Both the position numbers and the translations under genes were made by a program. Positions 15,356 through 54,588 of a stretch of 64,000 nucleotides of DNA are shown here, in pieces. Origin of the DNA: Patescibacteria group bacterium (lineage in GTDB: Bacteria; Patescibacteriota; Dojkabacteria; J137); contig BOLA01000001.1 of the NCBI GenBank assembly GCA_016861265.1, forward strand, positions 1,023,745 through 1,087,744. The letters are read 5' to 3'. Position 1 is the stretch's first letter; each line of letters starts with the position of its first letter. Below the pieces are notes generated by a model. The model searched no databases, was not told the DNA's origin, and saw only the letters and a list, made by a program, of their open reading frames with translations.

Positions 15356-15359
15356 AAAT

Positions 15360-36600: not shown

Positions 36601-36712
36601 TCTTACCTGTTCCAGGCCCTGCTATAACTAAAACTGGTCCATCTATAGTGTTTACAGCTTCCTGCTGAGAAGGGTTCAGTCCTTTAATTTGTTCGTCAAG
36701 ATTAATCTTCAT
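33614..36712 (-). CDS. UvrD/PcrA-like SF1A helicase fused to a C-terminal RecB-family PD-(D/E)xK nuclease with Cas4/AddB-type Cys cluster
   Basis: N-terminus LNPSQQEAVNTIDGPVLVIAGPGTGKTQVLSYRIANIL (Walker A) and VDEYQDTN (motif II). C-terminus GKIDRIEWIDKTRGEVRVVDYKTSK (RecB nuclease motif), an upstream Cys (YIDCPLRF) and a terminal TCKECLYCKTF. Confidence 0.75.
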   Translation of the reverse strand: MKINLDEQIKGLNPSQQEAVNTIDGPVLVIAGPGTGKTQVLSYRIANILSKTDASSQNILCLTFTDSGVNAMRNRLLGLIGNDALYVKIFTFHSFCNDVIQSNPEKFVFKKELKQLDDLNKIKIIRSIIDKVAETGKSSLVTFGDKYYYQKSILDSIQTLKREGKKASELKAICEEVLEELKANPELNKKTGKPLGKYTDKVNKYTKNLELAEIYQLYTDALSEEGFYDYEDMILFVIDKLKSDDELLASLQEKYLYILVDEYQDTNGAQNEILKVLGSFDTRPNIFAVGDDDQAIFRFQGANVENLLFFKKQFEDVKTISLTINYRSSQHILDLSSKLVDHNQARLNKLIEGLNKNLKAGLNIPNHPTEVFEFNNQDAENNFVVNKIKELETNGVKYSDIAIFYKEHSDGEDIALDLINNNIPVRLAAGKNSLNQLPVIQLINLLKAISYTDKDRDSIIFKIIFYPFFKISRLDCFKLTKIAHDKRLSIFELMLDKEQLQLNGITEIEKINNIAEMLLEFKGDSVNHMFLNFIKKVMDLTGYLDHYFIQNNVENINSIQSFFEYVKSINQTNKELSLEEFLLDLKLLEDNFISIQETEVSVNKEGVNLMTAHKSKGLEYKYVFIIKCVDKKWGNKKVSSLITLPDEIYNLTGEQDTESLKMDKLEDERRLFFVALTRAKEKLFITYAKEYPQGNNVKTTVPSLFINELQDKLLEVNAVTENIFDKQKALNKLKFNSFSPYSVTEQEYLNSVIDRFSLSATSLNKYIDCPLRFKFEDLLNAPHSKNNSLILGTAIHYALEQYARNQIKGTTKDLEFLTQMFISNLERQIIDPDDYKVILEEGIEILEDYYKFYNGEFSIPADVEYSFNNKNVILDFEDENTKPLKLSGKIDRIEWIDKTRGEVRVVDYKTSKPKSVKEIMGENKNATGDTFRQLVFYKLIADLDKNFKPFNSMLNYKVIESTVQYLKPAVNGEFKSVSFKITPEDIADLKEKIKDVITRIRNLDFGSEQYPTCKECLYCKTFNEIEEEIKPQ

Positions 36713-36760
36713 ACACTAAGAGGTTACCACTAGTATACCCTTTATTTGAAGCAAAATTTT

Positions 36761-39084: not shown

Positions 39085-40128
39085 ATGTTCAGACCAAATT
39101 TCAACTACACAGATAAACTTGTTACCTCTTTAGTAAAACTCGAAAATCTAAAGGCACAATTGGCATCAATGGATTTTTCTTATCCAGTAAAGCATAAGCT
39201 TTCAATGAATGCCAAAACTCAAGACATATTTCATCTAGGTCATATTCTTGGCTTAGACATGACACTAAAGGATGCCGAAAAAATTGCTGGTGGCTTAAGA
39301 CTAGATGGTTTCAAGGATCAAAACGCATACATTTTGGGTAATTTCAGAAATGCTTTGGAATTCAATAGATCTAATATTGCCGATACATATTCAGAAATTG
39401 ACTTTACAGTTTTATTACATGTAAATAAATTAATTACTTCTTCCTGGAGAGAATCATGGGATTCAAGATTCCGAAACGAAAATGATGAATTCGTAGACAA
39501 AGATGAATGGTCAGGTTTAAGAGATATTTCAGTAACTGGTGACCAGGTTCAAAACTCTATGATTGAACTGGTTGAATGGTATAAATCTGCAGCACCATCA
39601 ATTACTCCAATTATAAGAATAGGAATTACTCTATTTAGAATTACGGAAGTAGCACCATATTACACGGCTAATATGCTTAGTGTAATTGGTTTAGCTGATT
39701 ATCTATTTGTAAAAAACGGATTTGCGGGTAAAATCTACTCATCTTTTGTTCGAAACTTTGATTTAAACAAAGCAGCATACAAGGAAGCCTTTGAAGTTTC
39801 AAAAAAAGCTAACGATATTACTTATTGGCTAGAAGTTCTTTCTGATAATTTAATAAAAGAGTTATCCGAAACACGGGAAGACATGAGTAAATTAAATGAA
39901 GATGATGAGAAGGCTAAGAATCAACCTTTCTTAGATCTAAACAAAAGGCAGTTAAAAGTATTAAGGTACCTACAAACTGTACCTATGATTAAAAGAGAAG
40001 ATTATTGTCATATGATGGAAGTTTCTACTATGACTGCATTCAGAGACCTAAATGATTTAGTAAGGAAAAAGCTTATTAAAGTCGAAGGCAAAGGAAGAGG
40101 GACTAAATATAGATTATCAAGCATGTAA
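39085..40128 (+). CDS. Fic/DOC-family-like protein with degenerate active-site motif and C-terminal winged HTH
   Basis: APYYTANMLSVIGLADYLFVKNGF aligns to HPFx(D/E)GNGRxxRLLxxLxLxxxGY, but His, Asp/Glu and Gly-Arg are replaced. C-terminus ...AFRDLNDLVRKKLIKVEGKGRGTKYRL is wHTH-like. Confidence 0.4.
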   Translation: MFRPNFNYTDKLVTSLVKLENLKAQLASMDFSYPVKHKLSMNAKTQDIFHLGHILGLDMTLKDAEKIAGGLRLDGFKDQNAYILGNFRNALEFNRSNIADTYSEIDFTVLLHVNKLITSSWRESWDSRFRNENDEFVDKDEWSGLRDISVTGDQVQNSMIELVEWYKSAAPSITPIIRIGITLFRITEVAPYYTANMLSVIGLADYLFVKNGFAGKIYSSFVRNFDLNKAAYKEAFEVSKKANDITYWLEVLSDNLIKELSETREDMSKLNEDDEKAKNQPFLDLNKRQLKVLRYLQTVPMIKREDYCHMMEVSTMTAFRDLNDLVRKKLIKVEGKGRGTKYRLSSM

Positions 40129-40142
40129 TTAACAATTAATTT

Positions 40143-41438
40143 ATGAAAAGACTAAAACAGATTTATATCTTTGTTTTTATTATAGTTTTAGGTTTATTGA
40201 TACTTCCTCAATTTAATCTAAAGATTGGTGAAAACGAATTTCAATACCCTAACATTGATTTTAGCTCTGTTAATTCAAGTGCTACTTTGGGTAACTTTAG
40301 TAGAGGCTATGACTTATACGATTCCAAAATGTATACAGCTACAGTGAATGTAGATTCAACTCTAACTATAGAAGAAAGAGAAAGGCAATTAAGAGATTTA
40401 GTAGAAGTTATCAGAAATAGAATTAATTATTCTAATTTACACGACATTTATGTAAATGGTGCAATTGAAAACGACACTTATAAATTAAATCTTTCATTCC
40501 CAGACTATATTCAGGAAAGTGATATTATTGCAAAATACTTGGTCGGTAAGGGAGAAATCTTCTTTGAGAATGATCCTCAGGTGTCCCAAACGGGTGTTGC
40601 ATTAAAAGATACAGACATTGTGGGACAAATTAAGAGCATCTACGATGAACAGTATGGAAATGTTTTATCGTTTAAGTTTGCTAATACTGCTTTAACAAAC
40701 TTTTACTTTGCACTGCAAAATACTAATAACTACTTTTTAATGCGAGTAGATTCTACTTACTTTGCAGTTATTCAAGACCCAAATTATACCAACACACAGA
40801 GCCTTGATCTTCAGACTTCTGCAATTGCAGTCCCGTTCGCCGAAGTAAAACTTAGTCCAAATGTAGCAATGTATACAAATATTGTTAGGTCTTACTTTTT
40901 AACTTCTCCTTTAGTAGTTGATGTAAATCTTGATCCAAACTTTAAAACCATTAAAAGAGACTTTGTAGCAGATAAAATCAGCTACATTGCTATATTTATT
41001 GTAGCGGCTGTTGCACTATTAATGTTAATGTACGCTTCTAAAAAAGGCATGACAAAAACAATTAAATTTGTCTTAATGTTAGGTAGTTACATGGTTCTAT
41101 TAACCTTCCTATTAAAGCTTTTATCAGCAACTTTATCGGTAAATTTATTATTAGGCTTTATTCTCGGTTTAATAATAGTTGTATATGCTATAGAAAAGTT
41201 ATTATCGACTGAAGAGGATCAACAAAGGACTTTCTTAAATGTAATAAATTATTATTGCATCTTTATTGCACTAGTAATATTTACAATATATAGATTCTTG
41301 CTTGCGGGAAATACAATGACAGATGCGTTTGGTACATTATTAGCATCGGTAATTTCCTTGCTGTTTCTTTCATATGTTAACTTTAAATTCATACTTGACT
41401 TAGAACCAAATTTTAAACCTTTTAGAAAAAGATTATGA
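40143..41438 (+). CDS. membrane protein: N-terminal anchor, large extracytoplasmic domain, C-terminal 4-5 TM bundle
   Basis: Hydropathy pattern. Its stop overlaps the next start (ATGA at 41435). Confidence 0.5.
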   Translation: MKRLKQIYIFVFIIVLGLLILPQFNLKIGENEFQYPNIDFSSVNSSATLGNFSRGYDLYDSKMYTATVNVDSTLTIEERERQLRDLVEVIRNRINYSNLHDIYVNGAIENDTYKLNLSFPDYIQESDIIAKYLVGKGEIFFENDPQVSQTGVALKDTDIVGQIKSIYDEQYGNVLSFKFANTALTNFYFALQNTNNYFLMRVDSTYFAVIQDPNYTNTQSLDLQTSAIAVPFAEVKLSPNVAMYTNIVRSYFLTSPLVVDVNLDPNFKTIKRDFVADKISYIAIFIVAAVALLMLMYASKKGMTKTIKFVLMLGSYMVLLTFLLKLLSATLSVNLLLGFILGLIIVVYAIEKLLSTEEDQQRTFLNVINYYCIFIALVIFTIYRFLLAGNTMTDAFGTLLASVISLLFLSYVNFKFILDLEPNFKPFRKRL

Positions 41439-42364
41439 ACAGACTTAAATTAGCATTACCTTACATTACAGTAATATTATTTGTAGCTTCGCTTGGTTTA
41501 TTTGTATTTAACCATGGATTTAAATACGATGACTACGAGAATTATATTAGGGTTCAGATTAATGGAACCGAAAATGTAGATTTATTTATAGAAAGACTTA
41601 GAGATACAAGTGGATTAATAGAATTAGATAAGGCAAATAACTTTGCCTACTATCAACAAGTAGATAAGACAGTTGTAGAAGAAAATCTCAATAATGTTAA
41701 AGAGGATTATCCTGAAATTGAGACTACTGTTGAAACTATTTATCCATCAGTTTCAAAAAAACAAAGAATCATTGATTTAGCTTTAACTACAACTTTGATT
41801 ATTGTATTGTTTGCGGCATTCAGTTATGTAACCAAAACACGTGCCTTTAACTGGAACCTAAAAGAATATGCTAAGTATTATGGTCTATATTTTGCAGATA
41901 ATATATTATCTTTAGGAATATTGGCTGGACTTGTTAGTTTATTATCATTGGTATATAAAATAAACGATTATGTACTATTCTCATTCTTTGTGTTGGTAAT
42001 TGTAAAAACATCAATTTATTGGTTTAAATTACTTCAAGAAGACATTAACCAAATGAAGACTCATTTTGTGGAAAATTTTGTTAATGACTCAAGAAAAATC
42101 TTTGTAGTCGCATTAATACTTTGCGTGTTATTGGCTGTAGGTATGGGAGTAAGAAGTGTTATTCCACTAGCCTTTATTTTAGTAGCTATTATTGTTAATT
42201 TCTTGACTAACTACTCGATATTAACGTTTCAAGTTCCTAAATTCAGAAGGGCCCTTGAGCATCAGGTGGAAAATAGAGAAAAGACTCAAACCAAACCAGA
42301 AAAAACAGAGAAAAAGTATGTTCCAAACCCTAAATTAAAGAAAAAGAATAAAAAGAAGAAATAA
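41435..42364 (+). CDS. membrane protein with similar topology and a Lys-rich C-terminal tail (KKKNKKKK)
   Basis: Translationally coupled to the upstream gene. Followed by a strong terminator. Confidence 0.5.
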   Translation: MNRLKLALPYITVILFVASLGLFVFNHGFKYDDYENYIRVQINGTENVDLFIERLRDTSGLIELDKANNFAYYQQVDKTVVEENLNNVKEDYPEIETTVETIYPSVSKKQRIIDLALTTTLIIVLFAAFSYVTKTRAFNWNLKEYAKYYGLYFADNILSLGILAGLVSLLSLVYKINDYVLFSFFVLVIVKTSIYWFKLLQEDINQMKTHFVENFVNDSRKIFVVALILCVLLAVGMGVRSVIPLAFILVAIIVNFLTNYSILTFQVPKFRRALEHQVENREKTQTKPEKTEKKYVPNPKLKKKNKKKK

Positions 42365-42367
42365 ACT

Positions 42368-42391
42368 AAGCCCTCGAAAGAGGGTTTTTTT
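42368..42391 (+). terminator. rho-independent terminator
   Basis: aagccctc-gaaa-gagggtt followed by ttttttt. Confidence 0.75.
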
Positions 42392-42421
42392 ATGCTAAAA
42401 TAAATCGTTTAAAAACCATAT

Positions 42422-43504
42422 ATGAACTTATCTTTAGGCATTGTAGGGCTACCGAATGTGGGAAAATCCACTCTTTTTAATGCATTAACAAAACAGAATG
42501 TATTAGCTGCGAATTATCCATTTGCTACTATTGATCCAAATGTTGGTATTGTACCAGTAAGTGATGAACGACTATATAAAATAGCTGAGATTGCAAAACC
42601 TGCAAAAATTACACCCGCGGTAGTAGAATTCGTAGACATTGCCGGCTTGGTTAAGGGTGCTGCAAGTGGTGAAGGTCTAGGAAATAAGTTTCTAAGTAAT
42701 ATTAAGGAAGTTTCTGCAATTGTACACCTAGTAAGAGTATTCAAGAATGCAAATATAACCCATGTGGAAAATAGTGTTGACCCAACGAGAGATATTGAGC
42801 TTATTAATACTGAACTAATATTAAAGGATGCAGACACCGTAGAAAATAGAATTAATACAATAAAAAGAAACGCAAGATTTGATAAAGATGCGGCTGAGCA
42901 ACTTGATCATTTAACAAGACTAGCGGCACATCTAAATGCAGGCTTTCTTGCAATTGACTTTAATGAACCAGTCTCTGATGTAGTTGCAACCGAAAGAAAA
43001 TCCTTATTTTTATTAACTGACAAACCTGTAATTTATCTAGCAAATTCAGACGATGCAACTTCTGCAGAGGCTATAGAAGCCGTAAAAAAGGTAGTAGGTA
43101 ATAAAACCGTATTGGCTCTAGATGTTAAAACCGAAAGCGAGCTTGCATCTATGGATGAGGATGAACGAAAAATGTTTATGGATGAACTTGGCATTGTTGA
43201 AACAGGAATTAACAGGTTAACCAAGGAAGCCTACGACTTATTAGGACTAATTTCGTTCTTTACTGAGGGACCTGAAGAAGTTAGGGCTTGGACAATTAGA
43301 AAAGGCTCAACTGCTCCCGAGGCTGCCTCAGCAATTCACACAGATTTTCAGAAAAGATTTATTGCTGCGGAAGTATGTCTTTATAGTGACTACTTAACAG
43401 CTGGAAGCTGGGTAAAAGCTAAAGAAAACGGGAAAGTAAGACTAGAGGGTAAGACTTACATCGTTAAGGATGGAGATATAATGATTATCAAGCACAACGC
43501 TTAA
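42422..43504 (+). CDS. ychF: ribosome-binding ATPase YchF (Obg-family GTPase/ATPase)
   Basis: N-terminal LGIVGLPNVGKSTLFNALT (G1 motif) and a C-terminal TGS domain. Confidence 0.9.
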   Translation: MNLSLGIVGLPNVGKSTLFNALTKQNVLAANYPFATIDPNVGIVPVSDERLYKIAEIAKPAKITPAVVEFVDIAGLVKGAASGEGLGNKFLSNIKEVSAIVHLVRVFKNANITHVENSVDPTRDIELINTELILKDADTVENRINTIKRNARFDKDAAEQLDHLTRLAAHLNAGFLAIDFNEPVSDVVATERKSLFLLTDKPVIYLANSDDATSAEAIEAVKKVVGNKTVLALDVKTESELASMDEDERKMFMDELGIVETGINRLTKEAYDLLGLISFFTEGPEEVRAWTIRKGSTAPEAASAIHTDFQKRFIAAEVCLYSDYLTAGSWVKAKENGKVRLEGKTYIVKDGDIMIIKHNA

Positions 43505-43743
43505 CTCTTCCTTTTTAAAAGATACATTAAGCAATCTTTTAGGCTGAATAGTCCCCATACTGCATTTACAATTATAAATGGCAGAGAATTTGTATATATT
43601 GCATAAATAAGTAAAAAAACACTTCCTAGAAAGTTTGCGAAGTCATAAATAAACGAATTGTTCTTTAGTTTATTTAATTGATTTAACAAAAAAGCCACCA
43701 GAACTAAGGCCGAACCGGCAATTCCAACTATAGTTAAGTCCAT
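43501..43743 (-). CDS. small two-TM membrane protein (80 aa)
   Basis: Hydrophobic ORF convergent with ychF (the 3' ends overlap by 4 nt). Confidence 0.4.
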   Translation of the reverse strand: MDLTIVGIAGSALVLVAFLLNQLNKLKNNSFIYDFANFLGSVFLLIYAIYTNSLPFIIVNAVWGLFSLKDCLMYLLKRKS

Positions 43744-43808
43744 ATTTAATTGAATAGATAAGTAAAGGTGTATACAATATAAGTATAAAATAAATTTATA
43801 CTTTTACA

Positions 43809-44612
43809 ATGGAATCAATAATTATAGATAATGTAAAAATTACTCATCCAAATAAGGTATTGTTTCCTGAGTCAGGTATTACTAAGCTTGACCTGATAAA
43901 TTATTATAAAAGTGTATCAGATAAATTTATAAAGGAAGTAATGAATAGGCCAATAAGCATGGTAAGAAGTCCTAATGGAATTAAAGGTCCCAAATTCTAC
44001 CAGAAACACCCTACCGAATCCTTTCCCGAATACGTAGAAAGAGTCAAGATAAAAGAAAAAGATGAATACGATGCTTATATAACTATAGATCAATTGAACG
44101 ATATTTTATATTTAGTAAATATTGGTGTATTAGAATTTCACATCTGGGGTAGCAAAATTCAAGATATTGAAACCCCAGACAGAATTATCTTTGACTTAGA
44201 TCCATCAAATCAAGACGACTCAAAATTAAGGGAGCTAGCATTACTCATAAAAAAAATACTTGAAGATAATGGCTATAAGCCGCTCCTAAAGACTTCCGGT
44301 TCTAAAGGCTTTCATGTTTACGCCGATGTTAGCGAAAGAAGATTCTCCTGGGACGATATTAAACTTATTTCTAAGACAATTGCAGAATCTATTGTAAGAA
44401 TAAATCCCAAGGAATATACAATTGAATTTAGAAAGGAAAAGAGACAAGAAAAAATATTTATTGATTATTTAAGAAATGAACGAGGGTCGACTATGGTCGC
44501 ACCCTACTCCATTAGAATTAAGGAACACGCTCCCATTTCAATGCCTATAAGCTGGAGTGAACTAAAAAATATAAGTCCACAAAGCTATAACATAAATAAC
44601 TATAAAAAATAG
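43809..44612 (+). CDS. stand-alone LigD-type polymerase domain (archaeo-eukaryotic primase, NHEJ PolDom)
   Basis: All three AEP motifs are present: I IIFDLDPS, II LKTSGSKGFHVY, III IFIDYLRNERGSTMVAPYSIR. The N-terminus ...THPNKVLFPESGITKLDLINYY... matches LigD Pol. Confidence 0.8.
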   Translation: MESIIIDNVKITHPNKVLFPESGITKLDLINYYKSVSDKFIKEVMNRPISMVRSPNGIKGPKFYQKHPTESFPEYVERVKIKEKDEYDAYITIDQLNDILYLVNIGVLEFHIWGSKIQDIETPDRIIFDLDPSNQDDSKLRELALLIKKILEDNGYKPLLKTSGSKGFHVYADVSERRFSWDDIKLISKTIAESIVRINPKEYTIEFRKEKRQEKIFIDYLRNERGSTMVAPYSIRIKEHAPISMPISWSELKNISPQSYNINNYKK

Positions 44613-44774
44613 ATGTTTAAACCCTCTTAAAAAGTGACTTAAACTATTATAGAATGTCTTAAATTAAGAAAATAAAATGCCAGAAGTATCTATATTACGT
44701 GTAAAAGTTAACTATACCGATCTACAGACATTCGCACTCCTATTTCTTGAATTAACACACTTTCACCGTTTCTG

Positions 44775-45713
44775 TTGATTTGTGCAGTATATTTTATAAG
44801 AGAAGTTATATTCTGGTTTATTTCCATGGTTAATGGAAATAAGTACTGGAAGTTCATTTATCTATTGAATAACTATGTATTTAGAAAAAGGTATTGGGGT
44901 TTAGTAATTAATGATAAGACCTTCAAACCCGTTAGTTATGCAAAAGTGAAGCTAATAAGGTTTGAAAAGAATAAAGAATCTGTAAGTAAAAAAGTTCTTG
45001 CATCCACTCTATCCGATTTTAACGGTAGATATAATTTTAACTACAAAGGACCATATAAAAATCTATTCTTGGAAGTGCATGGTATTGGTTATAAAGATTT
45101 CTATAAAGAAATTGATACTCTGGAACACTTGTCCAAAAATTCGGAAATGGTTTATGACATATATTTAACTCCTGGCAAGAAGGCATTAACGTTACAAATG
45201 CCTATAATAATCATCAATAAAATTACGAATTTATTAATTTTTACAGCAGCAGCAATTGGTCTAGTAGTGAGCATTTATTCACAATTAACCTACGGATTAT
45301 TTACTGACTTTGTTCTTTCCGCTATATATATTTTTATTCTTTACTACTCATTAAGTCATTTGTTTAGAAGATACACATTAAAAAAATTAGAAGTAATAGA
45401 ATCTTTATTAATGCAAAAAATTCCCGGTGCTGTAGTAAGACTGTATGATAGAAAACATCAACTGCATTTAGCTGTTACCAACTCAAAAGGCTACGTATTG
45501 CTGGATTGGATTCCTGGTGAACATCAAATTTTAGTTACAAAGAAAGGTTATGAACTAATAGATGATAATACAGGAGTTACGAATAGTAAGGCTTATTTAA
45601 CAAATAATAAACATATAAAACTAAAGAAAAGATTTAAGTCCTCGCAGAGTCTTACAACCACACCTAAAGATATTAAAATTAGAACATCTCTTCAAAACCC
45701 CTTTGCTAAGTAG
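44775..45713 (+). CDS. membrane protein with two carboxypeptidase-regulatory-like beta-sandwich domains
   Basis: VINDKTFKPVSYAKVKLIRFEKN...NGRYNF and GAVVRLYDRKHQ...NSKGYVLLDWIPGEHQILVTKKGYE are CarboxypepD_reg-like. Central TM helices. Confidence 0.45.
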   Translation: MICAVYFIREVIFWFISMVNGNKYWKFIYLLNNYVFRKRYWGLVINDKTFKPVSYAKVKLIRFEKNKESVSKKVLASTLSDFNGRYNFNYKGPYKNLFLEVHGIGYKDFYKEIDTLEHLSKNSEMVYDIYLTPGKKALTLQMPIIIINKITNLLIFTAAAIGLVVSIYSQLTYGLFTDFVLSAIYIFILYYSLSHLFRRYTLKKLEVIESLLMQKIPGAVVRLYDRKHQLHLAVTNSKGYVLLDWIPGEHQILVTKKGYELIDDNTGVTNSKAYLTNNKHIKLKKRFKSSQSLTTTPKDIKIRTSLQNPFAK

Positions 45714-45781
45714 AATTAGTAACAATATTTACTATAATAGGTATACAAGTATTATAATAAAGTAATTGTTAATATAATATT

Positions 45782-47014
45782 TTGTTCGAACCCATACCCT
45801 CAAAATTTAGACCGGAGACTCTAGATGAATTTATTGGACAACAGCATTTGGTGGGGAAAGGCATGCCTATTCGTAATTTTATTGAATCAGGTAATATTCC
45901 ATCAATGATATTTTGGGGACCTCCTGGAACAGGTAAGACTACGCTTGCAAATATTATTTCTAAAAGTGTTAATGCGAATATCCATAAATTATCCGCGGTC
46001 ATGGCAGGAAAAACTCAGTTAATGGAAATTGTTGATCAGGCTATTCACGAAAATAAAGATAATAAACTATTTGAACCTAAAAAAACAATTTTATTCCTAG
46101 ATGAAATTCACAGATGGAATAAATCTCAACAAGACTCGCTATTGCCTTATGTGGAAAAAGGAATAATTATATTGATTGGAGCAACAACAGAAAATCCATC
46201 ATTCTCATTAAATCCTGCTTTACTATCAAGAGCCAGAGTATTTACATTTAAAAAACATACATCAGAAGATGTAAAAAAATATCTGCTTTATTTAATAGAG
46301 AAGGTAAAACTAGAAACACCAACCCTGGATTACGATCCCGATGTTATTGAACTAATTGCAAAGTCTTCTGATGGAGACTTAAGAACATCGGGCAATATTT
46401 TAGAAACTGCAATTTATTTATCTAATGGCAATAAGATAAATAAAGACACCTTAAAGAATGCATTGGAAAACTTTCTTCAATACGAAAAAACCGGTGAGGA
46501 TCACTACAATATAATATCTGCAGTTCATAAATCACTGCGAGACTCCGATGCCACCGCTGCAGTTTACTGGGTAGTGCGAATGTTGCAGGCTGGAGACGAT
46601 CCTCTTTATATCTGCAGAAGGTTACTAAGGTTTGCTTCCGAGGATATAGGTAACGCTATGCCAAATGCGGTAGTGCTTGCCAACTCTGTGTTTGAATCAT
46701 GTCAAAAACTGGGTCGACCTGAGTGTGATATTTTTATTGTACAGCTAGTAGAATATTTAGCTAAGGCGCCCAAAAGTAATGCGGCTTATCTAGCATTGGC
46801 ACAAGCTCAATCCGATGTTTCGGAATTTGGTTCATTGCCGGTACCATTAAATATTCGCAATGGTGTTACAAAGTTAATGAAGGATTTAGGTTACGGCAAG
46901 GGGTATAAATACGCTCATGACTTTAAAAATGCCAAAGTGAACCAACAGCACCTACCCGATGAACTTAAAAATAGAAATTACTTTAAGCAGGAAATAAAAA
47001 AGGAAGACAATTAA
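45782..47014 (+). CDS. rarA: replication-associated recombination protein A (AAA+ ATPase)
   Basis: Walker A MIFWGPPGTGKTTLA, Walker B ILFLDEIHRWNKSQQD and a MgsA C-terminal domain. The track start is TTG. Confidence 0.85.
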   Translation: MFEPIPSKFRPETLDEFIGQQHLVGKGMPIRNFIESGNIPSMIFWGPPGTGKTTLANIISKSVNANIHKLSAVMAGKTQLMEIVDQAIHENKDNKLFEPKKTILFLDEIHRWNKSQQDSLLPYVEKGIIILIGATTENPSFSLNPALLSRARVFTFKKHTSEDVKKYLLYLIEKVKLETPTLDYDPDVIELIAKSSDGDLRTSGNILETAIYLSNGNKINKDTLKNALENFLQYEKTGEDHYNIISAVHKSLRDSDATAAVYWVVRMLQAGDDPLYICRRLLRFASEDIGNAMPNAVVLANSVFESCQKLGRPECDIFIVQLVEYLAKAPKSNAAYLALAQAQSDVSEFGSLPVPLNIRNGVTKLMKDLGYGKGYKYAHDFKNAKVNQQHLPDELKNRNYFKQEIKKEDN

Positions 47015-47388
47015 AATCTTAAAGTCTTAATTTGCTCTACTATTTCTATGGAGTAACTAGTGCCGCACTCTGTAATAAAACCATCTACATAACTGTTATG
47101 CACATTTGTATAAGCTTCCCTGACTTTTGCTTCAGGTATCGTGCTTCTAAAATAACTCTGAAATAGTTCTGGATTATCAGCATGCTTCTTCAACTCTTCA
47201 ATTACCTGTTTATCAGCAATTTTAAGAATATCGTTAAAAGACTTTAAACAAATATATCTCAGTGCATCTTTTACAAATTTTTCATCCTGATTTGTTAATT
47301 CCGCTAATCTAAGTAAATACTCTCTACTTTTCTCAGTGAATTCGTAGTTTCCTATATTATTCATATTAAAATAGAATACCTGCTCCAA
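47011..47388 (-). CDS. hypothetical protein (125 aa; TTG start in track, internal ATG at 47364 also possible)
   Basis: ORF only; no motif recognised. Confidence 0.35.
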   Translation of the reverse strand: MEQVFYFNMNNIGNYEFTEKSREYLLRLAELTNQDEKFVKDALRYICLKSFNDILKIADKQVIEELKKHADNPELFQSYFRSTIPEAKVREAYTNVHNSYVDGFITECGTSYSIEIVEQIKTLRF

Positions 47389-47530
47389 TTACGCTAAAGA
47401 AAATACTGCCAACTACAGATGCAGATATATTACCAATTTCACTTGCAGCATCGGGTAAAGTGTTGATTAATCCTGCATTGTATTCAGATCCAGATTTAAC
47501 ATTTTTAGTCTCGAGGTTTTCAGTTGACAT
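47366..47530 (-). CDS. possible small membrane protein (54 aa), unannotated
   Basis: ATG 47530 ... MSTENLETKNVKSGSEYNAGLINTLPDAASEIGNISASVVGSIFFSVIGAGILF with a hydrophobic C-terminal half. Its stop overlaps the start region of the downstream 125-aa ORF. Confidence 0.25.
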   Translation of the reverse strand: MSTENLETKNVKSGSEYNAGLINTLPDAASEIGNISASVVGSIFFSVIGAGILF

Positions 47531-47596
47531 AGTAAGTTGATAATATATTTAAGACATTTTAAAATTATGTTATGAAAATTACAATAAAACCACTTC

Positions 47597-48361
47597 ATGA
47601 ATGAATTCCAATCCAAACAAATAATTGTCAATAATCATTTAGTTAATTACTATAGTTCAATTGTCCCTAATTCAGACTACAATATAATCTTTATACACGG
47701 ATGGCTTTCAAACTCAAAAGTCTGGTTTCATTTAATGCATGCACTAAATAAAATAGGATTAACCTCTTATGCTTTAGACTTACCCGGATTTGGTGATTCA
47801 CAAATTCCCAATATTTCTGTAGATAATAATTTTTACGCAAGAACTGTTGAAGAATTTATTAATAAGTTAAATTTAAGGAATGTAATTTTAGTTGGGCACT
47901 CAAATGGAGGAGCTATTGCTGTTAAGCTTCAAGTACAAAGCAATGTTTGTAAAAAGATAGCATTAATTGATTCTGCTGGTATAAGAAGACGTACTTTTTC
48001 GAAGATAGCTAAAAATACTCTAGCTAAGGTGCTAAAGCCCGTATTTAAATTACCCTTACTAAAAAATCTAAGGAAAAAGATTTACACCGAAATGGGTGCG
48101 GAAGATTATATAAATTCTGAATATCTGCAAAAGACTTACAATAATGTTATAAGTGAAGATATTAGCGGACTTTATAAATATATCGAAATACCTACTCTAA
48201 TAATTTGGGGTAATCAAGATAAAGCAACTCCTGTAAGCTATGCACATTTTATTAACGAAAATATTAAAAATTCCGAATTAAAGCTAATAGATGCAGGCCA
48301 CTTTCCTTTTGTAGATAAACCGGATTTGGTAATAAATTATTTAATAAATTTTATAAAATGA
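47597..48361 (+). CDS. alpha/beta-fold hydrolase
   Basis: IIFIHGWLSN... and the nucleophile elbow VGHSNGGA. Confidence 0.7.
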   Translation: MNEFQSKQIIVNNHLVNYYSSIVPNSDYNIIFIHGWLSNSKVWFHLMHALNKIGLTSYALDLPGFGDSQIPNISVDNNFYARTVEEFINKLNLRNVILVGHSNGGAIAVKLQVQSNVCKKIALIDSAGIRRRTFSKIAKNTLAKVLKPVFKLPLLKNLRKKIYTEMGAEDYINSEYLQKTYNNVISEDISGLYKYIEIPTLIIWGNQDKATPVSYAHFINENIKNSELKLIDAGHFPFVDKPDLVINYLINFIK

Positions 48362-49107
48362 ATATATTCGAAGACAGCATTAATTTATTAAAGGGAGCTG
48401 CCTTTAGTAATATTCAGGTGGAAGATTCCTTTATTTTTCTTGAAAGCCCCGCGATCTTTAGTGAGTACATTGTACCTCTAACTTTTCTAGATAAATTTGA
48501 CACTGCCTATGCAGATGATATTTTTAACATTGAGCTAGAGAAGGAAAAGAATATTTCATACTATATTAGACAAACTCTTGTAGACGATTATTATGAATAC
48601 CTTAAAGGCTTAAAATTAAGTCAGGATTACATTGATTCCTATATGGTCTTAACTCCAGTGGACCTCCTTGATTTTGATGATAAGAACACCTCATTAATTG
48701 AAGTTACTGAGGAAAATTTTGATGCGTTTAAAGCGACTGCTCTTGAAATATTTGCTAGTTGGAGCAACGAGGAAGACTATGTAGACTACTTTAGTAATTT
48801 AAGTAAAACGAATACAGAAACCAGAATGTTTAAGGATTATATATTGGAATATAACGGTGCGATTGTAAGTATTGCTTCTGTAATCTTAGATAAAGATCTT
48901 AATATAGCTTATATACATAACGCGGGTACTGTAGAAGAATTCAGGCGTAACGGATACTTTAATATAATAAACAGCTTTATAATTAATAAATCATTGCAGC
49001 AAGGTGTCTCAAGAATATACTCTATTACAGAAAAGGATGGGGAATCTTATAATGCATATAAGAATTTGGGCTTTAAAGAACAGGATTCATATTACTCCTT
49101 TAGTTAA
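48358..49107 (+). CDS. hypothetical protein with GNAT-like C-terminal half
   Basis: ...YIHNAGTVEEFRRNGYFNIINSFII... resembles the acetyl-CoA-binding Q/RxxGxG/A region. Its start overlaps the upstream stop. Confidence 0.4.
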   Translation: MNIFEDSINLLKGAAFSNIQVEDSFIFLESPAIFSEYIVPLTFLDKFDTAYADDIFNIELEKEKNISYYIRQTLVDDYYEYLKGLKLSQDYIDSYMVLTPVDLLDFDDKNTSLIEVTEENFDAFKATALEIFASWSNEEDYVDYFSNLSKTNTETRMFKDYILEYNGAIVSIASVILDKDLNIAYIHNAGTVEEFRRNGYFNIINSFIINKSLQQGVSRIYSITEKDGESYNAYKNLGFKEQDSYYSFS

Positions 49108-49115
49108 ATTAAATT

Positions 49116-50579
49116 ATGAAATTTTTACCTCACAAAATTGTCTTTTACCAGTTATATATTTTTCAATTAGAAGAATACGATTCCAAAAGGTTTATAACGG
49201 CATTATCTAAAAAAGGTCTTTTCCCAAGCAATAGTTTAAGAAAAAAAGCAATCTTTACGAAAAAAGCAATTTTACTGGTTGCCTTAAATTTTATTCAAAA
49301 ACTAATCGTTCTTTTTGCTCTTGGTTTTTTACTTCACACAGTTTTCAATAATATATTCATATTAGCTATTACTCTATTAATTATATTTTATATTTTTGAT
49401 ATATTTTCCTTCGTTTTTCTAATACAAGCGAAAGATTTACTTTCTCCGATTGACTACTACACAAAAAAGCAGATGATTAAAAAAGCAAAGGCCAAGCTTT
49501 TATTATTACCTGATTTAAAGATTATCGGTATTACAGGTAGCTATGGTAAGACCACAATGAAGGAAACCTTATACGATTTTCTTAAGGAAGAATATAATGT
49601 GGTTAAAACCGAAGGTAATAATAATACTCCTTTAGGTATTTCCCGTACAATCCTAAACAAGCTTACAAAGAATACAGATATATTTATAGTAGAAATGGGT
49701 GAATACGTAAAAGGTGATGTAAAAGCACTATGCGAGATCGCACAACCCGATATCTCAGTAATAACCGGAATTAATGAAGCACACTTAGAACGTTACCTTA
49801 CAATGGAAAATGCAATTTCTACTAAATTTGAAATTGTAGAGTATGCAAAACCCGAAGCGTTTGTATTACTAAATGCCGATGATCAACTAACAATCGATAA
49901 CTATAAAAAATATATTAAAGGTAATAAGGTTGGGTTCTTTTCATCACATAATAATTCAATGAGCGATTATAAAATCTCAAACTATGAATTTGATCAGAAT
50001 GGAAACGGACAATCCTTCAAATTGAGTTTGGGTCAAGAAGAATTGGGAACCATAAAAACTACAATTTTGGGGGAATACATAATTGGCAACATTATTGCAG
50101 GCTACATCCTTGGTAAGCATTTTAATATCTCGGATAGTAAACTAAAATACGCTGCAAACAATCTAAAGGGTGTAGAACATAGACTCCAGCCAATATATAA
50201 CAATCAAAGCAATATACTTGTTATTGATGATACTTATAACGGGAACTCGGATGGCTTTAAAGAAGGAATAAATATGTTGAATAAATTTAAACAGCGAAGA
50301 AAGGTCTATGTTACACCAGGTCTTGTAGAAACGGGAGATCTGGCTGAACAATTACATCTAGAAATTGGAAAAAACTTATCTAATGTTGCAGACTTAGTAA
50401 TTCTAGTTAAGAATAGTGTTACAGGATTTATTGCAAAAGGTTTGATTGATAATGGTTTCAGCGAAGATAAAATTGTGTGGTATGATAATTCTAAGAACGT
50501 CTGGGAAGAATTAAATAATAATATAAAAAGCGGAGACGTTGTCATGCTTCAAAACGATTGGAGCGATAATTACTATTAA
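49116..50579 (+). CDS. murF: UDP-N-acetylmuramoyl-tripeptide--D-alanyl-D-alanine ligase
   Basis: Mur-ligase P-loop IGITGSYGKTTMKE and overall Mur-ligase length and architecture. Confidence 0.8.
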   Translation: MKFLPHKIVFYQLYIFQLEEYDSKRFITALSKKGLFPSNSLRKKAIFTKKAILLVALNFIQKLIVLFALGFLLHTVFNNIFILAITLLIIFYIFDIFSFVFLIQAKDLLSPIDYYTKKQMIKKAKAKLLLLPDLKIIGITGSYGKTTMKETLYDFLKEEYNVVKTEGNNNTPLGISRTILNKLTKNTDIFIVEMGEYVKGDVKALCEIAQPDISVITGINEAHLERYLTMENAISTKFEIVEYAKPEAFVLLNADDQLTIDNYKKYIKGNKVGFFSSHNNSMSDYKISNYEFDQNGNGQSFKLSLGQEELGTIKTTILGEYIIGNIIAGYILGKHFNISDSKLKYAANNLKGVEHRLQPIYNNQSNILVIDDTYNGNSDGFKEGINMLNKFKQRRKVYVTPGLVETGDLAEQLHLEIGKNLSNVADLVILVKNSVTGFIAKGLIDNGFSEDKIVWYDNSKNVWEELNNNIKSGDVVMLQNDWSDNYY

Positions 50580-50586
50580 TAAATTT

Positions 50587-51753
50587 ATGAATATAGCAGT
50601 TTTTTTTGGAGGAAGAAATACAGAACACGATGTTTCAATCATTACGGGAGAGCTAGTAATATCCGGACTAAAAGGCCTGGGACATACAGTCTATCCTGTT
50701 TACATATCCAAGGAGGGTAAGTGGTATATCTCCGAGAAAATGGATAATGTAGAATTCTTTAAGAATCCAAATCTAAAACTTGAAGGCGAAGTAAATTTAA
50801 ATTTATCGCAAAATCTAAATGGATCAGTTGTTCTTAAGACAGGGGGATTATTTAATTCAAAGCAATATGTAATAGATTTAGCTTTCCCCGCACTTCACGG
50901 TAAAAATGGTGAAGATGGTACAATTCAAGGTTTGTTTGAATTGTTGAATATTCCCTATGTTGGTTGTGATGTTGTTTCCAGTGCAATTTCAATGGATAAG
51001 GCTTTAACAAAACTGTTCTATCAAAGATTTAACTTTCCAACAACTAAATTTGTTACTCTAGACACAAATATCTGGGAAAAAGAAAAAGATTTAGTCCTAA
51101 AAGATATTAAAACAAATTTAACATGGCCAGTATTTGTTAAACCAGCTAGACTGGGTTCTTCTATAGGCATGACAAAAGTTAAGTCAGAGGACGATCTTGA
51201 ATTTGCTATAGAAGTCGCTCTTCATTACGATACAAAAGTATTAGTTGAAGAAAGCGTTGAGGATTTAATGGATATTACAGTTGCCTTAATAGGTAACGAA
51301 GAACCTACATATTCACTTATACAGGAATCTGCTTATTCAAAGGACTTCTTTTCCTATGAGGATAAATATTTGAACGAAGGTGGTGCTCAATTAGGAAATG
51401 CAGAAAAAAGCATTGTAATTCCCGCTAGGTTAGACGAAAAGACAACAAAGGAGATACAAGAAATGGCTAAGGAAATTTATAAGTTATTAGGGCTGTCTGG
51501 AATTGCAAGAGTTGATTTTCTCTACAGCAAAACCTATAAAAAGTTCTATGCCAACGAGGTTAATACCATGCCAGGAACAATATATCATCACTTATGGAAG
51601 AAAAGTGGAGTTGAACTTCCAGAGCTATTAAAAACATTAGTAGACTTAGCAATTTCAAAAAAACAAAAGGAAAATAAGCTCACTTTCACATTTGAATCTG
51701 CTATTCTAAAGAAGGCTAATTCAAACAAACTACAGCTAAAAGGACAAAATTAA
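50587..51753 (+). CDS. ddl: D-alanine--D-alanine ligase
   Basis: MNIAVFFGGRNTEHDVS...LHGKNGEDGTIQGLFELLNIPYVGCDV... and an ATP-grasp C-terminus. The ATG at 50587 is preferred over the track start at 50539, which overlaps murF by 41 nt. Confidence 0.85.
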   Translation: MNIAVFFGGRNTEHDVSIITGELVISGLKGLGHTVYPVYISKEGKWYISEKMDNVEFFKNPNLKLEGEVNLNLSQNLNGSVVLKTGGLFNSKQYVIDLAFPALHGKNGEDGTIQGLFELLNIPYVGCDVVSSAISMDKALTKLFYQRFNFPTTKFVTLDTNIWEKEKDLVLKDIKTNLTWPVFVKPARLGSSIGMTKVKSEDDLEFAIEVALHYDTKVLVEESVEDLMDITVALIGNEEPTYSLIQESAYSKDFFSYEDKYLNEGGAQLGNAEKSIVIPARLDEKTTKEIQEMAKEIYKLLGLSGIARVDFLYSKTYKKFYANEVNTMPGTIYHHLWKKSGVELPELLKTLVDLAISKKQKENKLTFTFESAILKKANSNKLQLKGQN

Positions 51754-51819
51754 TCTAAATCCTTGCATTCTTTGTACACTTAAATATACTAGATATTAGT
51801 ATTATTTATTTATATACCT

Positions 51820-53610
51820 ATGCAAAGATTGTTAGAAAAGATTAATGCCCATCCAAGGGCTACACTTATTGCGGTCGGAACAACTGTTTTCGGAGCCGCC
51901 GCATTAGTTATTTTACTTATGTTCCTTTCGTTAAGAGAGAGTGTTGTTAACCCCACTGTAACTCCAGAAGAGGAAAAAATGGTTTTATCCGAGGTTATAA
52001 AGAACAATCCAAGTGGAGTTATTAATAATCCAGGTAATTCAAGCACACCGATGCCTTCACCTAACCCTACACCTGTGCCAACACCAAACCCTACACCAGG
52101 TGTAGTGAATCCGAATCCTGAGACTCCTCAGCCAGAACAACCAGTGGCCCCAAATATAAATGAGTATAACTATAGAGTTACTAGGGTTACTAACCAAAGA
52201 GGTCCATCCTTTGATGCATGCCAAATGTATTATGGCGGAGGTTATGGTTATGGACCGGATGTAACAGAAAGCGATTCAGTATCTGAATATTATGAATATT
52301 TTGAAAGATACGTGAGCATTTATAAGAATCAAACAAAAGAAGATAATAAATTATCCTCTTACTACTTAAGCAAGTATGGAAGAAATGTTAATTCAACAAC
52401 ATATTACCTAGGAGGTAGTTATGCTGTAGAGAATTCTTATAAACCGTATGATCAATTTGATAATCAGCAAGACACTCAAGTTGTCTCTTACCCTACTTAT
52501 ACTGCTGACGAATATATTAAGTTATATTTTGGTTCCAATGCATCTGTTACAGGTGTTGAAACTGATTCAAATGGAGTTAAACACTATACAATAAGAAGCA
52601 GTTATACTTCTTATTGTGATCCGTCTTACGAGCAATACCTAGTTAGTGATGTAGTTCCACCGGCTTTAAGAACTATTTATTCAGTTTATAGAGTTAACGG
52701 TCAAACCTTCTCAATAGAACAAATAAAGACTTACATTGATGAAGTAAAAGATGCGAATTTAATTAAGGTATCAACTACAGAATCAACAAGATCTAAGGTA
52801 ACTTACACTCAAGTAGAGGCTCAGTTTAGGATTGCTTCTAATGTTCCGATAACAAAAAATGATTATAGTCATATTACATATAACTACGATCCTCTAAAAT
52901 CAATTAGGGATAATCTAACGTATCTTGCCATGATAAATGACGATATTTTATTACCATCTTCTACAGAAGGCCTTACAAATTTATGGGTAGATGGTTATGT
53001 GGATGCTAATTATGTAAATTCCACAGAATTCTATCAGGATAGAGACTTTTTCCCTGACTCTGACTGGGGAGATGAATTATATGCAAGATATAATACATCT
53101 GCTAATTATGTTAATAAGACATTGTATTCGATATCAATAACTCCTGAGTATGGTAAATACTACTCTATTTCTGCATATAAAGATGATCAACTATTTGATG
53201 ATATTATTTCAGAATTAATGAAGGGTACTGCTACTTCTAAGAGTATTGAAGATATTACAATAAATGTATCGGGTTTACCTGTAGAAGGTAAGAAGATTTC
53301 TAAAGTATTTACATATAAATTCCCAACATCCTACGGTGTATCTTACCCTGTATCTTATAGCTCAGATTCAAATACTAATTATTTTACTAACTATGTATTT
53401 GAGTACAATGGGAGAGTTTATGGCGTAAGCTACTATAGTTACAACCAACAAATGGATTTAGATATGAATGAATATAGTATTTATCCACTAACAACAGAAC
53501 TTGAAGCAGAAACAATGAGGAATTTGTTAACAGATATGTGGTCTAGGTATTTACAAATAGTAAATCCTGTTAGCTACCCTACGAGTTTTCCAGTAAGTTA
53601 TTCTTACTAA
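51820..53610 (+). CDS. secreted or membrane-anchored Pro/Thr-rich, Tyr-rich protein with C-terminal (V)SYP(V/T)S(Y/F) repeats
   Basis: Signal anchor AVGTTVFGAAALVILLMFLSL. Linker PSPNPTPVPTPNPTPGVVNPNPETPQPEQPVAPN. Repeats SYGVSYPVSYSS and VSYPTSFPVSYSY near the C-terminus. Confidence 0.55.
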   Translation: MQRLLEKINAHPRATLIAVGTTVFGAAALVILLMFLSLRESVVNPTVTPEEEKMVLSEVIKNNPSGVINNPGNSSTPMPSPNPTPVPTPNPTPGVVNPNPETPQPEQPVAPNINEYNYRVTRVTNQRGPSFDACQMYYGGGYGYGPDVTESDSVSEYYEYFERYVSIYKNQTKEDNKLSSYYLSKYGRNVNSTTYYLGGSYAVENSYKPYDQFDNQQDTQVVSYPTYTADEYIKLYFGSNASVTGVETDSNGVKHYTIRSSYTSYCDPSYEQYLVSDVVPPALRTIYSVYRVNGQTFSIEQIKTYIDEVKDANLIKVSTTESTRSKVTYTQVEAQFRIASNVPITKNDYSHITYNYDPLKSIRDNLTYLAMINDDILLPSSTEGLTNLWVDGYVDANYVNSTEFYQDRDFFPDSDWGDELYARYNTSANYVNKTLYSISITPEYGKYYSISAYKDDQLFDDIISELMKGTATSKSIEDITINVSGLPVEGKKISKVFTYKFPTSYGVSYPVSYSSDSNTNYFTNYVFEYNGRVYGVSYYSYNQQMDLDMNEYSIYPLTTELEAETMRNLLTDMWSRYLQIVNPVSYPTSFPVSYSY

Positions 53611-53673: not shown

Positions 53674-54588
53674 TTATCTTTCTAGTTCTGTAACTATATC
53701 TCTTAATTCTGCAGCCTTCTCAAATTCCAGCATATCTGCAAATAGCTGCATTTGGAATTTTATTTCTTTTAAGAGCTTCTTCTGATCCGATTTACTCATT
53801 GCTCTAAATCCTTCAGCTTTTTTAACAATATCTTGTTCTTTTTCCTCATCGGACATATTTTCATTAGATTGTTCTGAGAATGCCGAAAGCTGATCTTTTA
53901 TTTCTTTGACTATAGTTCTAGGAGTTATTCCATGAGCCTTATTAAACTCATCTTGTATTTTTCGTCTTCTACGTGTCTCTTCAATCGCGAATTGCATCGA
54001 ATCTGTGATCTTATCGGCATACATTATTACTCGACCTTCCTGGTGCCTTGCAGCTCTACCAATAACCTGAATTAAGCTGGTCCTTGACCTTAGAAAACCT
54101 TCTTTGTCTGCATCTAAAATTGCTACTAAGGATACCTCCGGTAAGTCTAATCCTTCCCTTAATAAGTTTATGCCAACTAATACATCGTAAACTCCTAGTC
54201 TTAAGTCTTTTAGAATTCGCACTCTTTCCATTGAATCGATGTCGGAGTGTAGGTACTTAGCCTTAATTCCCTTCTCAGTTAAGTAATCGGAAAGCTCCTC
54301 GGACATTCTTTTTGTTAGTGTTGTAACTAGTACTCTTTGTTTCTTTTCTACTGTTTTATCAATTTCATCTATTAGATTAGGTACTTGAGGTTGTGACCAA
54401 GAAGATTCATTCAATATTGGCATCTCAGTAAAACCCTTTTCTATAAGGTTTTTCTTTAGGTTCTCGAAGGTTTCAGGTAACGATGGTCTTACTTCTACTA
54501 TAGGATCCAAAAGACCTGTCGGTCTAATTATTTGGTAGACAATTCCATTGTAGTCTTTTGGTAGTGTACTCATGCCTAATTTTAACAT
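53674..54588 (-). CDS. uvrB: UvrB C-terminal half only (helicase domain 3 + UvrC-interacting UVR domain); N-terminal ~410 aa absent
   Basis: [17 protein letters not shown]...[27 protein letters not shown]...VIGRAARH... and the C-terminal UVR helix-hairpin ...[24 protein letters not shown]. The dcd stop is only 27 nt upstream, so there is no room for the Walker-A N-terminal half. Confidence 0.7.

Follow-up and report, generated by a model that had tools for sequence, protein, structure and literature searches.

The primase-polymerase domains (PolDoms) of LigD from Mycobacterium tuberculosis (Mtb; PDB entry 2iru) and Pseudomonas aeruginosa (2fao) are parts of a Pol-PE-Lig fusion, in which they are joined to a phosphoesterase (PE) and a ligase domain, and they are encoded together with Ku. 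Mpa Pol of Methanocella paludicola (5dmu) is a stand-alone PolDom of about 300 amino acids, which works with separately encoded Ku, ligase and PE in a functional archaeal system of non-homologous end joining (NHEJ; PMC7719229). The mycobacterial paralogues PolD1 and PolD2 likewise consist of the LigD polymerase domain alone; their deletion caused no NHEJ phenotype, which is attributable to redundancy, and a role in 'ribo-patch' repair has been proposed for them (PMC4176160). Prim-PolC of M. smegmatis (5op0 and 6sa0), a further stand-alone LigD-like primase-polymerase, is associated with LigC, fills 5'-phosphorylated gaps of 1-3 nt in excision repair and is defined by a C-terminal Loop 3 (residues 313-333) that bridges Loops 1 and 2 (PMC7442782). 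Here we describe a stand-alone PolDom gene in a 64,000-nt stretch of contig BOLA01000001.1 (hereafter, the window) that belongs to a bacterium of the Candidate Phyla Radiation (CPR; also called Patescibacteria), and we compare its protein, its surroundings and its relatives with the systems listed above.

Identity, architecture and inheritance of the gene

The predicted protein matches the NCBIfam model TIGR02778 (ligD_pol) over its whole length (positions 1-245 of 245, 281.7 bits with a cutoff of 214.7) and the Pfam family LigD_Prim-Pol (PF21686) over positions 1-242 of 254 (E=2e-80, 270.5 bits, cutoff 27.4). Full-length LigD models align to it with their polymerase portions alone, and the scores are far under the cutoffs. 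The open reading frame (ORF; Table 1) starts with an ATG codon, and its stop-to-stop frame opens at position 43794, just 15 nt 5' of the ATG, so that a fusion at either the N- or the C-terminus is impossible. No pseudogene remnants were found around the ORF. Because the frame is this short and because Ku, ligase and PE are missing from all six frames of the window (see below), the gene is a genuine stand-alone gene and not a piece of a decayed fusion.

A preliminary description of the window, made by reading its sequence, had reported that the catalytic motifs of the archaeo-eukaryotic primase (AEP) superfamily are intact. All of them are indeed present, namely FDLDP (residues 128-132), SGSKGFHVY (163-171), DYLRN (219-223) and APYS (231-234), and they are invariant in 24 relatives with identities down to 43%. 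Across the same set 44 alignment columns, including every catalytic residue, are invariant, which shows that purifying selection acts on the gene.

The host is a low-GC member of the CPR: the GC content of the window is 33%, and its housekeeping content includes YchF, a Mur ligase, Ddl, PGK, SerRS, an AddA-like helicase-nuclease and tRNAs. The PolDom gene has the GC content (0.318) and the third-codon-position GC content (GC3, 0.28) of its neighbours. An identical protein is encoded on six Logan metagenome contigs with an unchanged gene order. In a search of 185,579 species genomes, close relatives turned up in just two CPR metagenome-assembled genomes (MAGs), one of them Ca. Dojkabacteria BIN12 (63% identity) and the other labelled Ca. 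Saccharibacteria (73%), both with the synteny of the window, and a metagenome scan added a single further close relative (57%; locus L091 in our numbering). The clade is found mainly in Logan assemblies. Stand-alone relatives at a greater distance (43-53%) are encoded on contigs of 0.66-1.14 Mb. Carriers of this clade's PolDom include ERZ25039495:contig_16963 (1.14 Mb), ERZ21878301:contig_2 (668 kb), CAZGEO010000001.1 (659 kb) and the Dojkabacteria BIN12 MAG JAUQWV01.

A phylogeny of the domain, which the preliminary description had proposed as a check, places the CPR proteins in one clade of a rough, midpoint-rooted neighbour-joining (NJ) tree. The sister group of this clade consists of stand-alone polymerases encoded beside a separate ligase without Ku, one of them in an Actinomycetota MAG. 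The PolDom gene appears to be long established on the chromosome of a narrow CPR clade and to have been inherited vertically. We are moderately confident that this clade, with genomes of about 0.7-1.1 Mb, inherited it vertically in a form uncoupled from Ku, ligase D and PE.

Local absence of end-joining partners

Every ORF of at least 90 amino acids in the window was scanned against Pfam, and our own hidden Markov models (HMMs) for Ku, the ATP-dependent ligase domain and PE were run on all six frames. No Ku and no ATP-dependent DNA ligase domain was present among the ORFs of this length, and the HMMs were negative for Ku, ligase and PE throughout the six-frame translation of the 64 kb (best E > 0.4). 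The same three models were negative in every frame of a CPR-type set of 11 non-redundant loci, which includes the window, has a total length of 236 kb and, in the relatives, extends at most 10 kb from the gene in either direction. Hence, the lack of Ku and ligase near this LigD-type PolDom, as stated in the preliminary description, holds here and at every CPR-type relative examined.

As a control we used 157 non-CPR PolDom loci from genome and metagenome scans, 80 of which are at least 15 kb long. Within 10 kb of the PolDom, these 80 loci contain Ku in 54 cases, a ligase in 72 and PE in 72. The architecture of the PolDom gene in all 157 loci is Pol+Lig+PE (91), Pol+Lig (19), Pol+PE (4) or Pol alone (43). 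Most PolDoms at these control loci are thus fusions. The stand-alone form is less unusual than the preliminary description had implied: about 100 of the best 120 database matches are at most 340 amino acids long and have the Pol domain alone, and neither Ku nor ligase is found within 10 kb in 5 of the 80 large non-CPR loci, including those of Mesorhizobium and Clostridia MAGs. Most of the other loci sampled from Mesorhizobium and Clostridia do carry Ku and ligase beside the PolDom.

Genomes with 'POL but no LIG, no Ku' had already been seen by Sharda et al., who filed them as NHEJ-minus without further study, and who found that NHEJ goes with large genomes (median of 5.4 Mb versus 2.9 Mb; PMC7719229). 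We found nothing relevant in the literature on NHEJ or LigD in Patescibacteria or Dojkabacteria. Stand-alone PolDoms are known and common; the present one is found in an unusual host and an unusual gene neighbourhood.

Comparison with solved structures

The protein has sequence matches to five solved PolDom structures with E-values from 4e-58 to 7e-35. The best match is the Methanocella NHEJ polymerase 5dmu (E=3.8e-58, residues 8-265 of our protein aligned), followed by the Pseudomonas LigD-Pol 2fao (E=4.2e-46), Prim-PolC (5op0/6sa0, E of about 1e-39) and the Mtb PolDom 2iru (E=6.8e-35). Residues 7-109 align to the Mtb PolDom without gaps and in register with the native Mtb numbering, so that the Mtb functional residues, which we took from a structural review of LigD (PMC8656161), can be transferred directly.

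Of the 5'-phosphate pocket (Mtb N13/K16/K26), K16 is present and is K or R in the clade, K26 is invariant, and H13 replaces N13 as it does in Pseudomonas. The Phe wedge is represented by F63, which is invariant, and Y64, with Phe64 as the Mtb equivalent. The metal ligands D129, D131 and D219 correspond to Mtb D137, D139 and D227, and the NTP-phosphate triad S163, H169 and R236 corresponds to Mtb S172, H178 and R244. The catalytic positions (AEP motifs I-III and the Arg) are invariant in 24 PolDoms of the CPR clade and in 83 Ku-linked PolDoms, and the functional positions as a whole are invariant or K/R in both sets. Loops 1 and 2, which are responsible for template positioning and break synapsis, also align to Mtb without gaps. 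Our protein belongs to the same family as the Mtb and P. aeruginosa LigD-Pol and shares all of these elements with them, but it is encoded by a separate gene with no partner nearby, whereas they are domains of a fusion.

When the sequences were filtered at 70% redundancy, 12 positions were conserved in the CPR clade and variable in the Ku-linked PolDoms, and 10 of the 12 fall within residues 66-104 (about 44004-44120 in the window; Fisher p<=0.0004). The residues of this patch are E70, F72, P73, Y75, V76, R78, Y90, D94, Y101 and L102, and the CPR PolDoms have N104 where the Ku-linked PolDoms have an invariant Gln. This patch borders on both the template wedge and Loop 1. We considered it as a signature of Ku independence and rejected this idea, as the Methanocella enzyme, which is Ku-dependent, has part of it, namely the 'FP-x-[YW]' segment.

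Prim-PolC has the same core fold and pocket, and our protein scores slightly higher against it (140 bits) than against the Mtb LigD-Pol (124 bits). Nevertheless, we rejected the identification of the protein as a Prim-PolC, since it ends before Loop 3. Its last residue, 267, aligns to residue 271 (5op0) or 276 (6sa0) of the Prim-PolC chain, about 40-55 residues short of the loop, which is therefore missing.

Proposed function

The reading that we favour, and that in our estimate has an even chance of being correct, is that the PolDom is an active, Ku-independent, 5'-phosphate-directed repair polymerase that fills gaps and ends. The mechanism that we propose is modelled on the enzymes from Mtb, Pseudomonas and Methanocella for which structures have been solved. 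The 5'-phosphate across a short gap or recessed end would be held in the K16/K26 pocket, F63 and Y64 would splay the template, which Loops 1 and 2 would position along with the primer 3'-OH, and the metal centre together with the NTP-phosphate triad would add NTPs. Ribonucleotides would probably be the preferred substrate, as they are in every characterised member of the family. The leftover nick would be sealed by a separate ligase, presumably the housekeeping NAD+-dependent LigA. Gaps and ends arising in damage tolerance, rather than Ku-bound double-strand breaks, are suggested as the substrates because the gene is fixed between umuDC (Pol V) and rarA in the deeper relatives (see below).

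PolD1 and PolD2 are the closest functional precedent for a PolDom outside of Ku and LigD. Mycobacteria also encode Ku, LigD and LigC, and this redundancy masks the contribution of PolD1 and PolD2, whereas a minimal CPR genome may have the PolDom only. Should its carriers indeed have neither Ku nor an ATP-dependent ligase, they would constitute a natural minimal system, in which the Ku-independent role of the PolDom is its sole role, and would show how bacteria with tiny genomes retain a ribonucleotide-using repair polymerase. The umuDC/rarA neighbourhood points to a specific and testable context for this role. If, on the other hand, Ku and a ligase are encoded elsewhere, the gene would be part of an ordinary, dispersed NHEJ gene set.

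Gene neighbourhood

According to the preliminary description, the PolDom gene is flanked by a small membrane ORF and a beta-sandwich membrane protein. Both flanks are confirmed: the former belongs to the CBU_0592 family, and the latter has CarboxypepD_reg-like domains. In the window lineage the order of genes is YchF, CBU_0592(-), PolDom(+), membrane protein and rarA(+), and this synteny is common to L007 and L008 (63-73% identity). The 48-53% relatives L087, L090, L173 and L174 have the order umuC-like(-), umuD(-), CBU_0592(-), PolDom(+) and rarA(+), with variable genes between them; in L087, the 10 kb around the PolDom contain umuD without a umuC-like gene. In L088, as in L090, L173 and L174, both UmuD and a UmuC-like protein are encoded near the PolDom. 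These S24 proteins are UmuD by their NF007621 scores of 151-166 bits (cutoff 110), and the Y-family polymerases are UmuC-like, with NF002955 scores of 391-433 bits around a cutoff of 431. The context of L088 and L089 (43-44%) is different, yet umuDC is found 9 kb off in L088.

In the window, L007, L087, L090 (with one gene between), L091, L173 and L174, the CBU_0592 gene is next to the PolDom gene and on the other strand. The rarA gene lies 1-8 kb from the PolDom in the window, L007, L008, L087, L090, L173 and L174. Neither gene was found near the PolDom in any of the 157 non-CPR loci. The gene between the PolDom and rarA was considered as a partner and rejected, as it is unrelated in L087 (no Pfam match at E<=1), and in L090 the membrane protein homologue is beside rarA.

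A pair of ABC2 transporter genes and MscL follow rarA in L087 (14656-16340), L174 (8400-10878) and L173 (14001-16407). In L175 (7176-9787) the same genes directly abut the PolDom, which suggests that an inversion or deletion took rarA out of the PolDom neighbourhood. In the window, the membrane protein gene has a frameshift near 44750, where a 1-bp deletion (AA versus AAA in L001-L003) splits a 345-codon ORF. The independent assembly L004 (DRR258780) has the same allele, so that the frameshift is probably genuine variation between strains and not an artefact of sequencing.

An operator shared by rarA, umuD and umuC

A fixed 19-nt composite element, GGTAYACA-N5-TAWAAT, is located upstream of the rarA, umuD and umuC-like genes across the CPR lineages. 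There are 10 strict matches to it in the 236 kb of CPR-type loci, and all 10 lie 5-41 nt 5' of rarA, umuD or a umuC-like gene. A position weight matrix (PWM), trained on these 10 defining sites, the scores of which are consequently inflated, adds the rarA gene of L174, the umuC gene of L173 and the AddA-like genes of the window and L007. The AddA-like helicase-nuclease gene of the window (33614-36712, minus strand) encodes UvrD and PD-(D/E)XK domains, and the operator-like site in front of it has a conserved counterpart in L007 (PWM score of 9.8). The shared operator suggests a small SOS-like regulon. The -10 box ends just 5-8 nt before the start codon at L087 8195 and 11628, L174 3131 and 2171, L090 7504, L007 11944 and window 36712, and this short distance suggests that the transcripts of umuD, umuC, addA and some of the rarA genes are leaderless.

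In the 120 nt upstream of the PolDom gene in 11 loci, the best PWM scores range from -8 to +10, compared to 20-26 for the defining sites and to a null 99th percentile of 7.9. The intergenic region of the window reaches only -3.5 on the plus and 7.2 on the minus strand. We therefore rejected membership of the PolDom in the rarA/umuDC operator regulon, as the operator is missing upstream of it in every lineage. The PolDom gene is located physically among damage-response genes, yet it is unmarked by their operator.

The intergenic region does contain a promoter-like sequence, TTGAAT-17-TACAAT, at 43750-43778; the promoter count is not above that of shuffled sequences. An inverted repeat, GTATAAA-N5-TTTATAC (43782-43801), was also considered and discarded. 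It is found only in near-identical strains, is missing in L007, L008, L087, L090, L173 and L174, and is probably a chance occurrence in AT-rich DNA.

Table 1. Coordinates of the PolDom gene, of the features surrounding it and of the operator sites. Positions refer to the window unless a locus is named.
Feature	Position	Strand	Evidence or remark
CBU_0592-family small membrane protein, 80 aa, divergent from PolDom	43501..43743	-	NF047864, 47.5 bits (cutoff 25)
65-bp divergent intergenic region with putative PolDom promoter	43744..43808	.	
Stand-alone LigD-type primase-polymerase (PolDom / Prim-PolD-like AEP), 267 aa	43809..44612	+	PF21686, TIGR02778, PDB 5dmu, conserved functional residues
Membrane protein with CarboxypepD_reg/SdrD-like beta-sandwich domains, frameshifted	44677..45713	+	
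Operator-promoter GGTATACAAGTATTATAAT upstream of rarA	45740..45758	+	matches GGTAYACA-N5-TAWAAT
RarA/MgsA replication-associated recombination ATPase	45782..47014	+	PF12002 MgsA_C, E=4.9e-58, and AAA domains
Weaker operator-like site GGGTATACT...GGTAAC, 8 nt 5' of AddA-like gene	36717..36743	-	PWM 11.0
Further operator site	L007 11918-11936		
Further operator site	L008 8168-8186		
Further operator site	L173 11779-11797		
Further operator site	L087 11603-11621		
Further operator site	L087 8220-8202	-	
Further operator site	L090 18725-18743		
Further operator site	L090 7529-7511	-	
Further operator site	L174 3155-3137	-	
Further operator site	L174 2196-2178	-	

Alternative explanations

Several points weigh against the favoured reading. 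One rival to it is a conventional NHEJ system with dispersed genes, in which Ku and an ATP-dependent ligase of the stand-alone type, perhaps with PE as well, would be encoded elsewhere in the genome, as in Methanocella or Streptomyces, and the PolDom would be an ordinary end-processing polymerase. With 64 kb covered in this strain, Ku and an ATP-dependent ligase could be encoded in another part of the genome. No feature of the Ku-dependent NHEJ polymerases is missing from the protein, Loops 1 and 2 included, and it is the Ku-dependent Methanocella polymerase that matches it best in the PDB. The PolDom of the window also keeps an Asp at the position of the Ku-contact residue D162 of Mtb. Moreover, the PolDoms of Mesorhizobium and Clostridia that are orphans by location (within the 5 of 80 loci) come from taxa in which most of the other loci sampled have Ku and ligase adjacent. 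The conserved neighbourhood, for its part, is missing rarA and CBU_0592 in L088 and L089, and synteny within a single clade may reflect inheritance and not a functional linkage. As the PolDom lacks the operator of the damage-tolerance genes in all lineages, there is no support for its being co-regulated with them. Nonetheless, we consider dispersed NHEJ to be unlikely. Ku, ligase and PE, which are adjacent to the PolDom in 68-90% of other bacteria and accompany Mpa Pol as separate genes, are found nowhere in the 236 kb of the 11 CPR-type loci, and the genomes of the clade do not exceed 1.1 Mb, while NHEJ is tied to large genomes (PMC7719229). The residues that contact Ku provide a further, weak argument. 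The CPR clade varies more at the equivalents of Mtb D162, V194 and R198 and at adjoining positions, and the positions R141, L154, P173, F187 and the D162 equivalent are conserved in Ku-linked PolDoms and variable in this clade. The relaxation near the Ku-contact helices has a Fisher p of 0.016 with the 70% filter and of 0.12 with a 60% filter for a segment that was picked post hoc, and the V194 and R198 equivalents are not conserved even among the Ku-linked PolDoms, so that a loosened constraint at these helices is only suggestive.

The neighbourhood raises a different possibility, namely that the enzyme is a damage-tolerance polymerase that restarts synthesis past lesions through its primase activity or fills daughter-strand gaps left after replication, together with RarA and Pol V. 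In eukaryotes, the AEP PrimPol functions in damage tolerance in connection with translesion synthesis polymerases and with WRNIP1, the homologue of RarA/Mgs1, which restrains PrimPol-dependent UV bypass (PMC13558859). Here umuC/umuD and rarA enclose the PolDom gene in L090, L173 and L174, and in L087 it has umuD and rarA beside it. Its linkage to rarA is kept in the window lineage, the association is missing from the 157 non-CPR loci, and the operator common to rarA, umuD and umuC suggests that these three belong to a small regulon. PrimPol itself comes from another branch of the AEPs and carries a zinc-finger domain. The parallel is one of gene neighbourhood only: the PolDom is without the shared operator in all lineages, the gene between it and rarA is not conserved, rarA is 8 kb off in L090 and missing near the PolDom in L088, L089 and L175, and the synteny is limited to one clade. 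To our knowledge, repriming in vivo has not been demonstrated for any LigD-type polymerase. A repriming role is thus unlikely in our opinion, and we are just as doubtful of its fullest form, in which a LigD-type PolDom, fully uncoupled from Ku and ligase D, would have been recruited to a UmuDC (Pol V)-RarA module to reprime or to fill daughter-strand gaps with ribonucleotides. If true, bacteria would have a counterpart to the eukaryotic PrimPol-WRNIP1 axis, and the enzyme would be the first case in its family with a Ku-independent function as its sole one. We find it very unlikely that the protein is a gap filler of base or nucleotide excision repair similar to Prim-PolC, with an unlinked ATP-dependent ligase of the LigC type as its partner. 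The layout of the NJ sister group, a stand-alone Pol with a separate ligase and no Ku, resembles that of LigC and Prim-PolC and agrees with this explanation, as does the bit score difference given above, but the tree topology is rough and midpoint-rooted, the defining Loop 3 is missing, and no ligase domain, and thus no adjacent LigC-type ligase, is present within 10 kb at any CPR-type locus. Two further explanations are effectively refuted. AEP primases are common in mobile elements and in some defence systems, and the preliminary description had suggested a mobile or defence context for this one. AbiJ-like, SoFic-like and RecD-like genes are present in the window, but they are 3.7 to 35 kb away from the PolDom, and neither the PolDom nor its immediate flanks have a PADLOC match. 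Its relatives in phage records are only 31% identical, plasmids carry only conventional ligD genes (at most 40% identity), and of the 2.9 million viral contigs in IMG/VR two carry a relative, which is at most 43% identical and part of a fusion with Lig or PE. Next to the gene there is neither an integrase nor a tRNA-flanked island, nor are there repeats, its composition is that of the host, and its housekeeping synteny is stable over 48-100% identity, so the suggestion did not hold and this origin is hardly credible. Equally hard to credit is a decaying, functionless relic of a lost NHEJ operon. The local lack of NHEJ partners would fit a relic; the full-length intact frame, the invariant columns in relatives of at least 43% identity, the clustering of CPR-only conserved positions in residues 66-104 and the retention of the gene in streamlined genomes do not.

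Other observations in the window

The three defence-like genes mentioned above, AbiJ-like (Abi_C; 8170-8934, minus strand), SoFic-like Fic/HTH (39085-40128, plus) and RecD-like helicase (15330-16514, plus), do not adjoin the PolDom. The RecD-like helicase matches PADLOC PDC-M16A/typeIV_RecD, and the AbiJ-like gene is adjacent to tRNA-Ser and tRNA-Cys.

In a comparison of the region 39085-53610 with L001 and L002, blocks of 100% identity alternate with blocks of synonymous divergence (pS) of 0.07-0.35, in which the ratio of nonsynonymous to synonymous divergence (pN/pS) is 0.01-0.16. This mosaic indicates frequent homologous recombination among co-occurring strains of the CPR population. The PolDom gene itself shows zero nucleotide divergence between strains in which the flanks differ by a pS of 0.07-0.35. 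A selective sweep was considered and dismissed, as the pattern is explained by the retrieval of these loci through an exact protein match combined with the recombination mosaic. An ABC-transporter ATPase gene (12233-14119, plus strand), with a GC content of 0.46 and a GC3 of 0.45 in a genome with a GC content of 0.33, was probably acquired horizontally in the recent past.

A 304-codon ORF at 53674-54588 (minus strand) encodes only the C-terminal half of UvrB (the Helicase_C and UvrB domains), and the N-terminal half is not adjacent to it. ORFs with the same two domains are present in L001 (304 aa) and L002 (299 aa), and a 267-aa ORF occupies the same position in L007. Finally, the gene at 55187-57013 (minus strand) encodes a protein of 608 residues, unusually long for ThyX, the sole Pfam match of which is ThyX (Thy1) at residues 95-300; this gene adjoins that of a dCTP deaminase.

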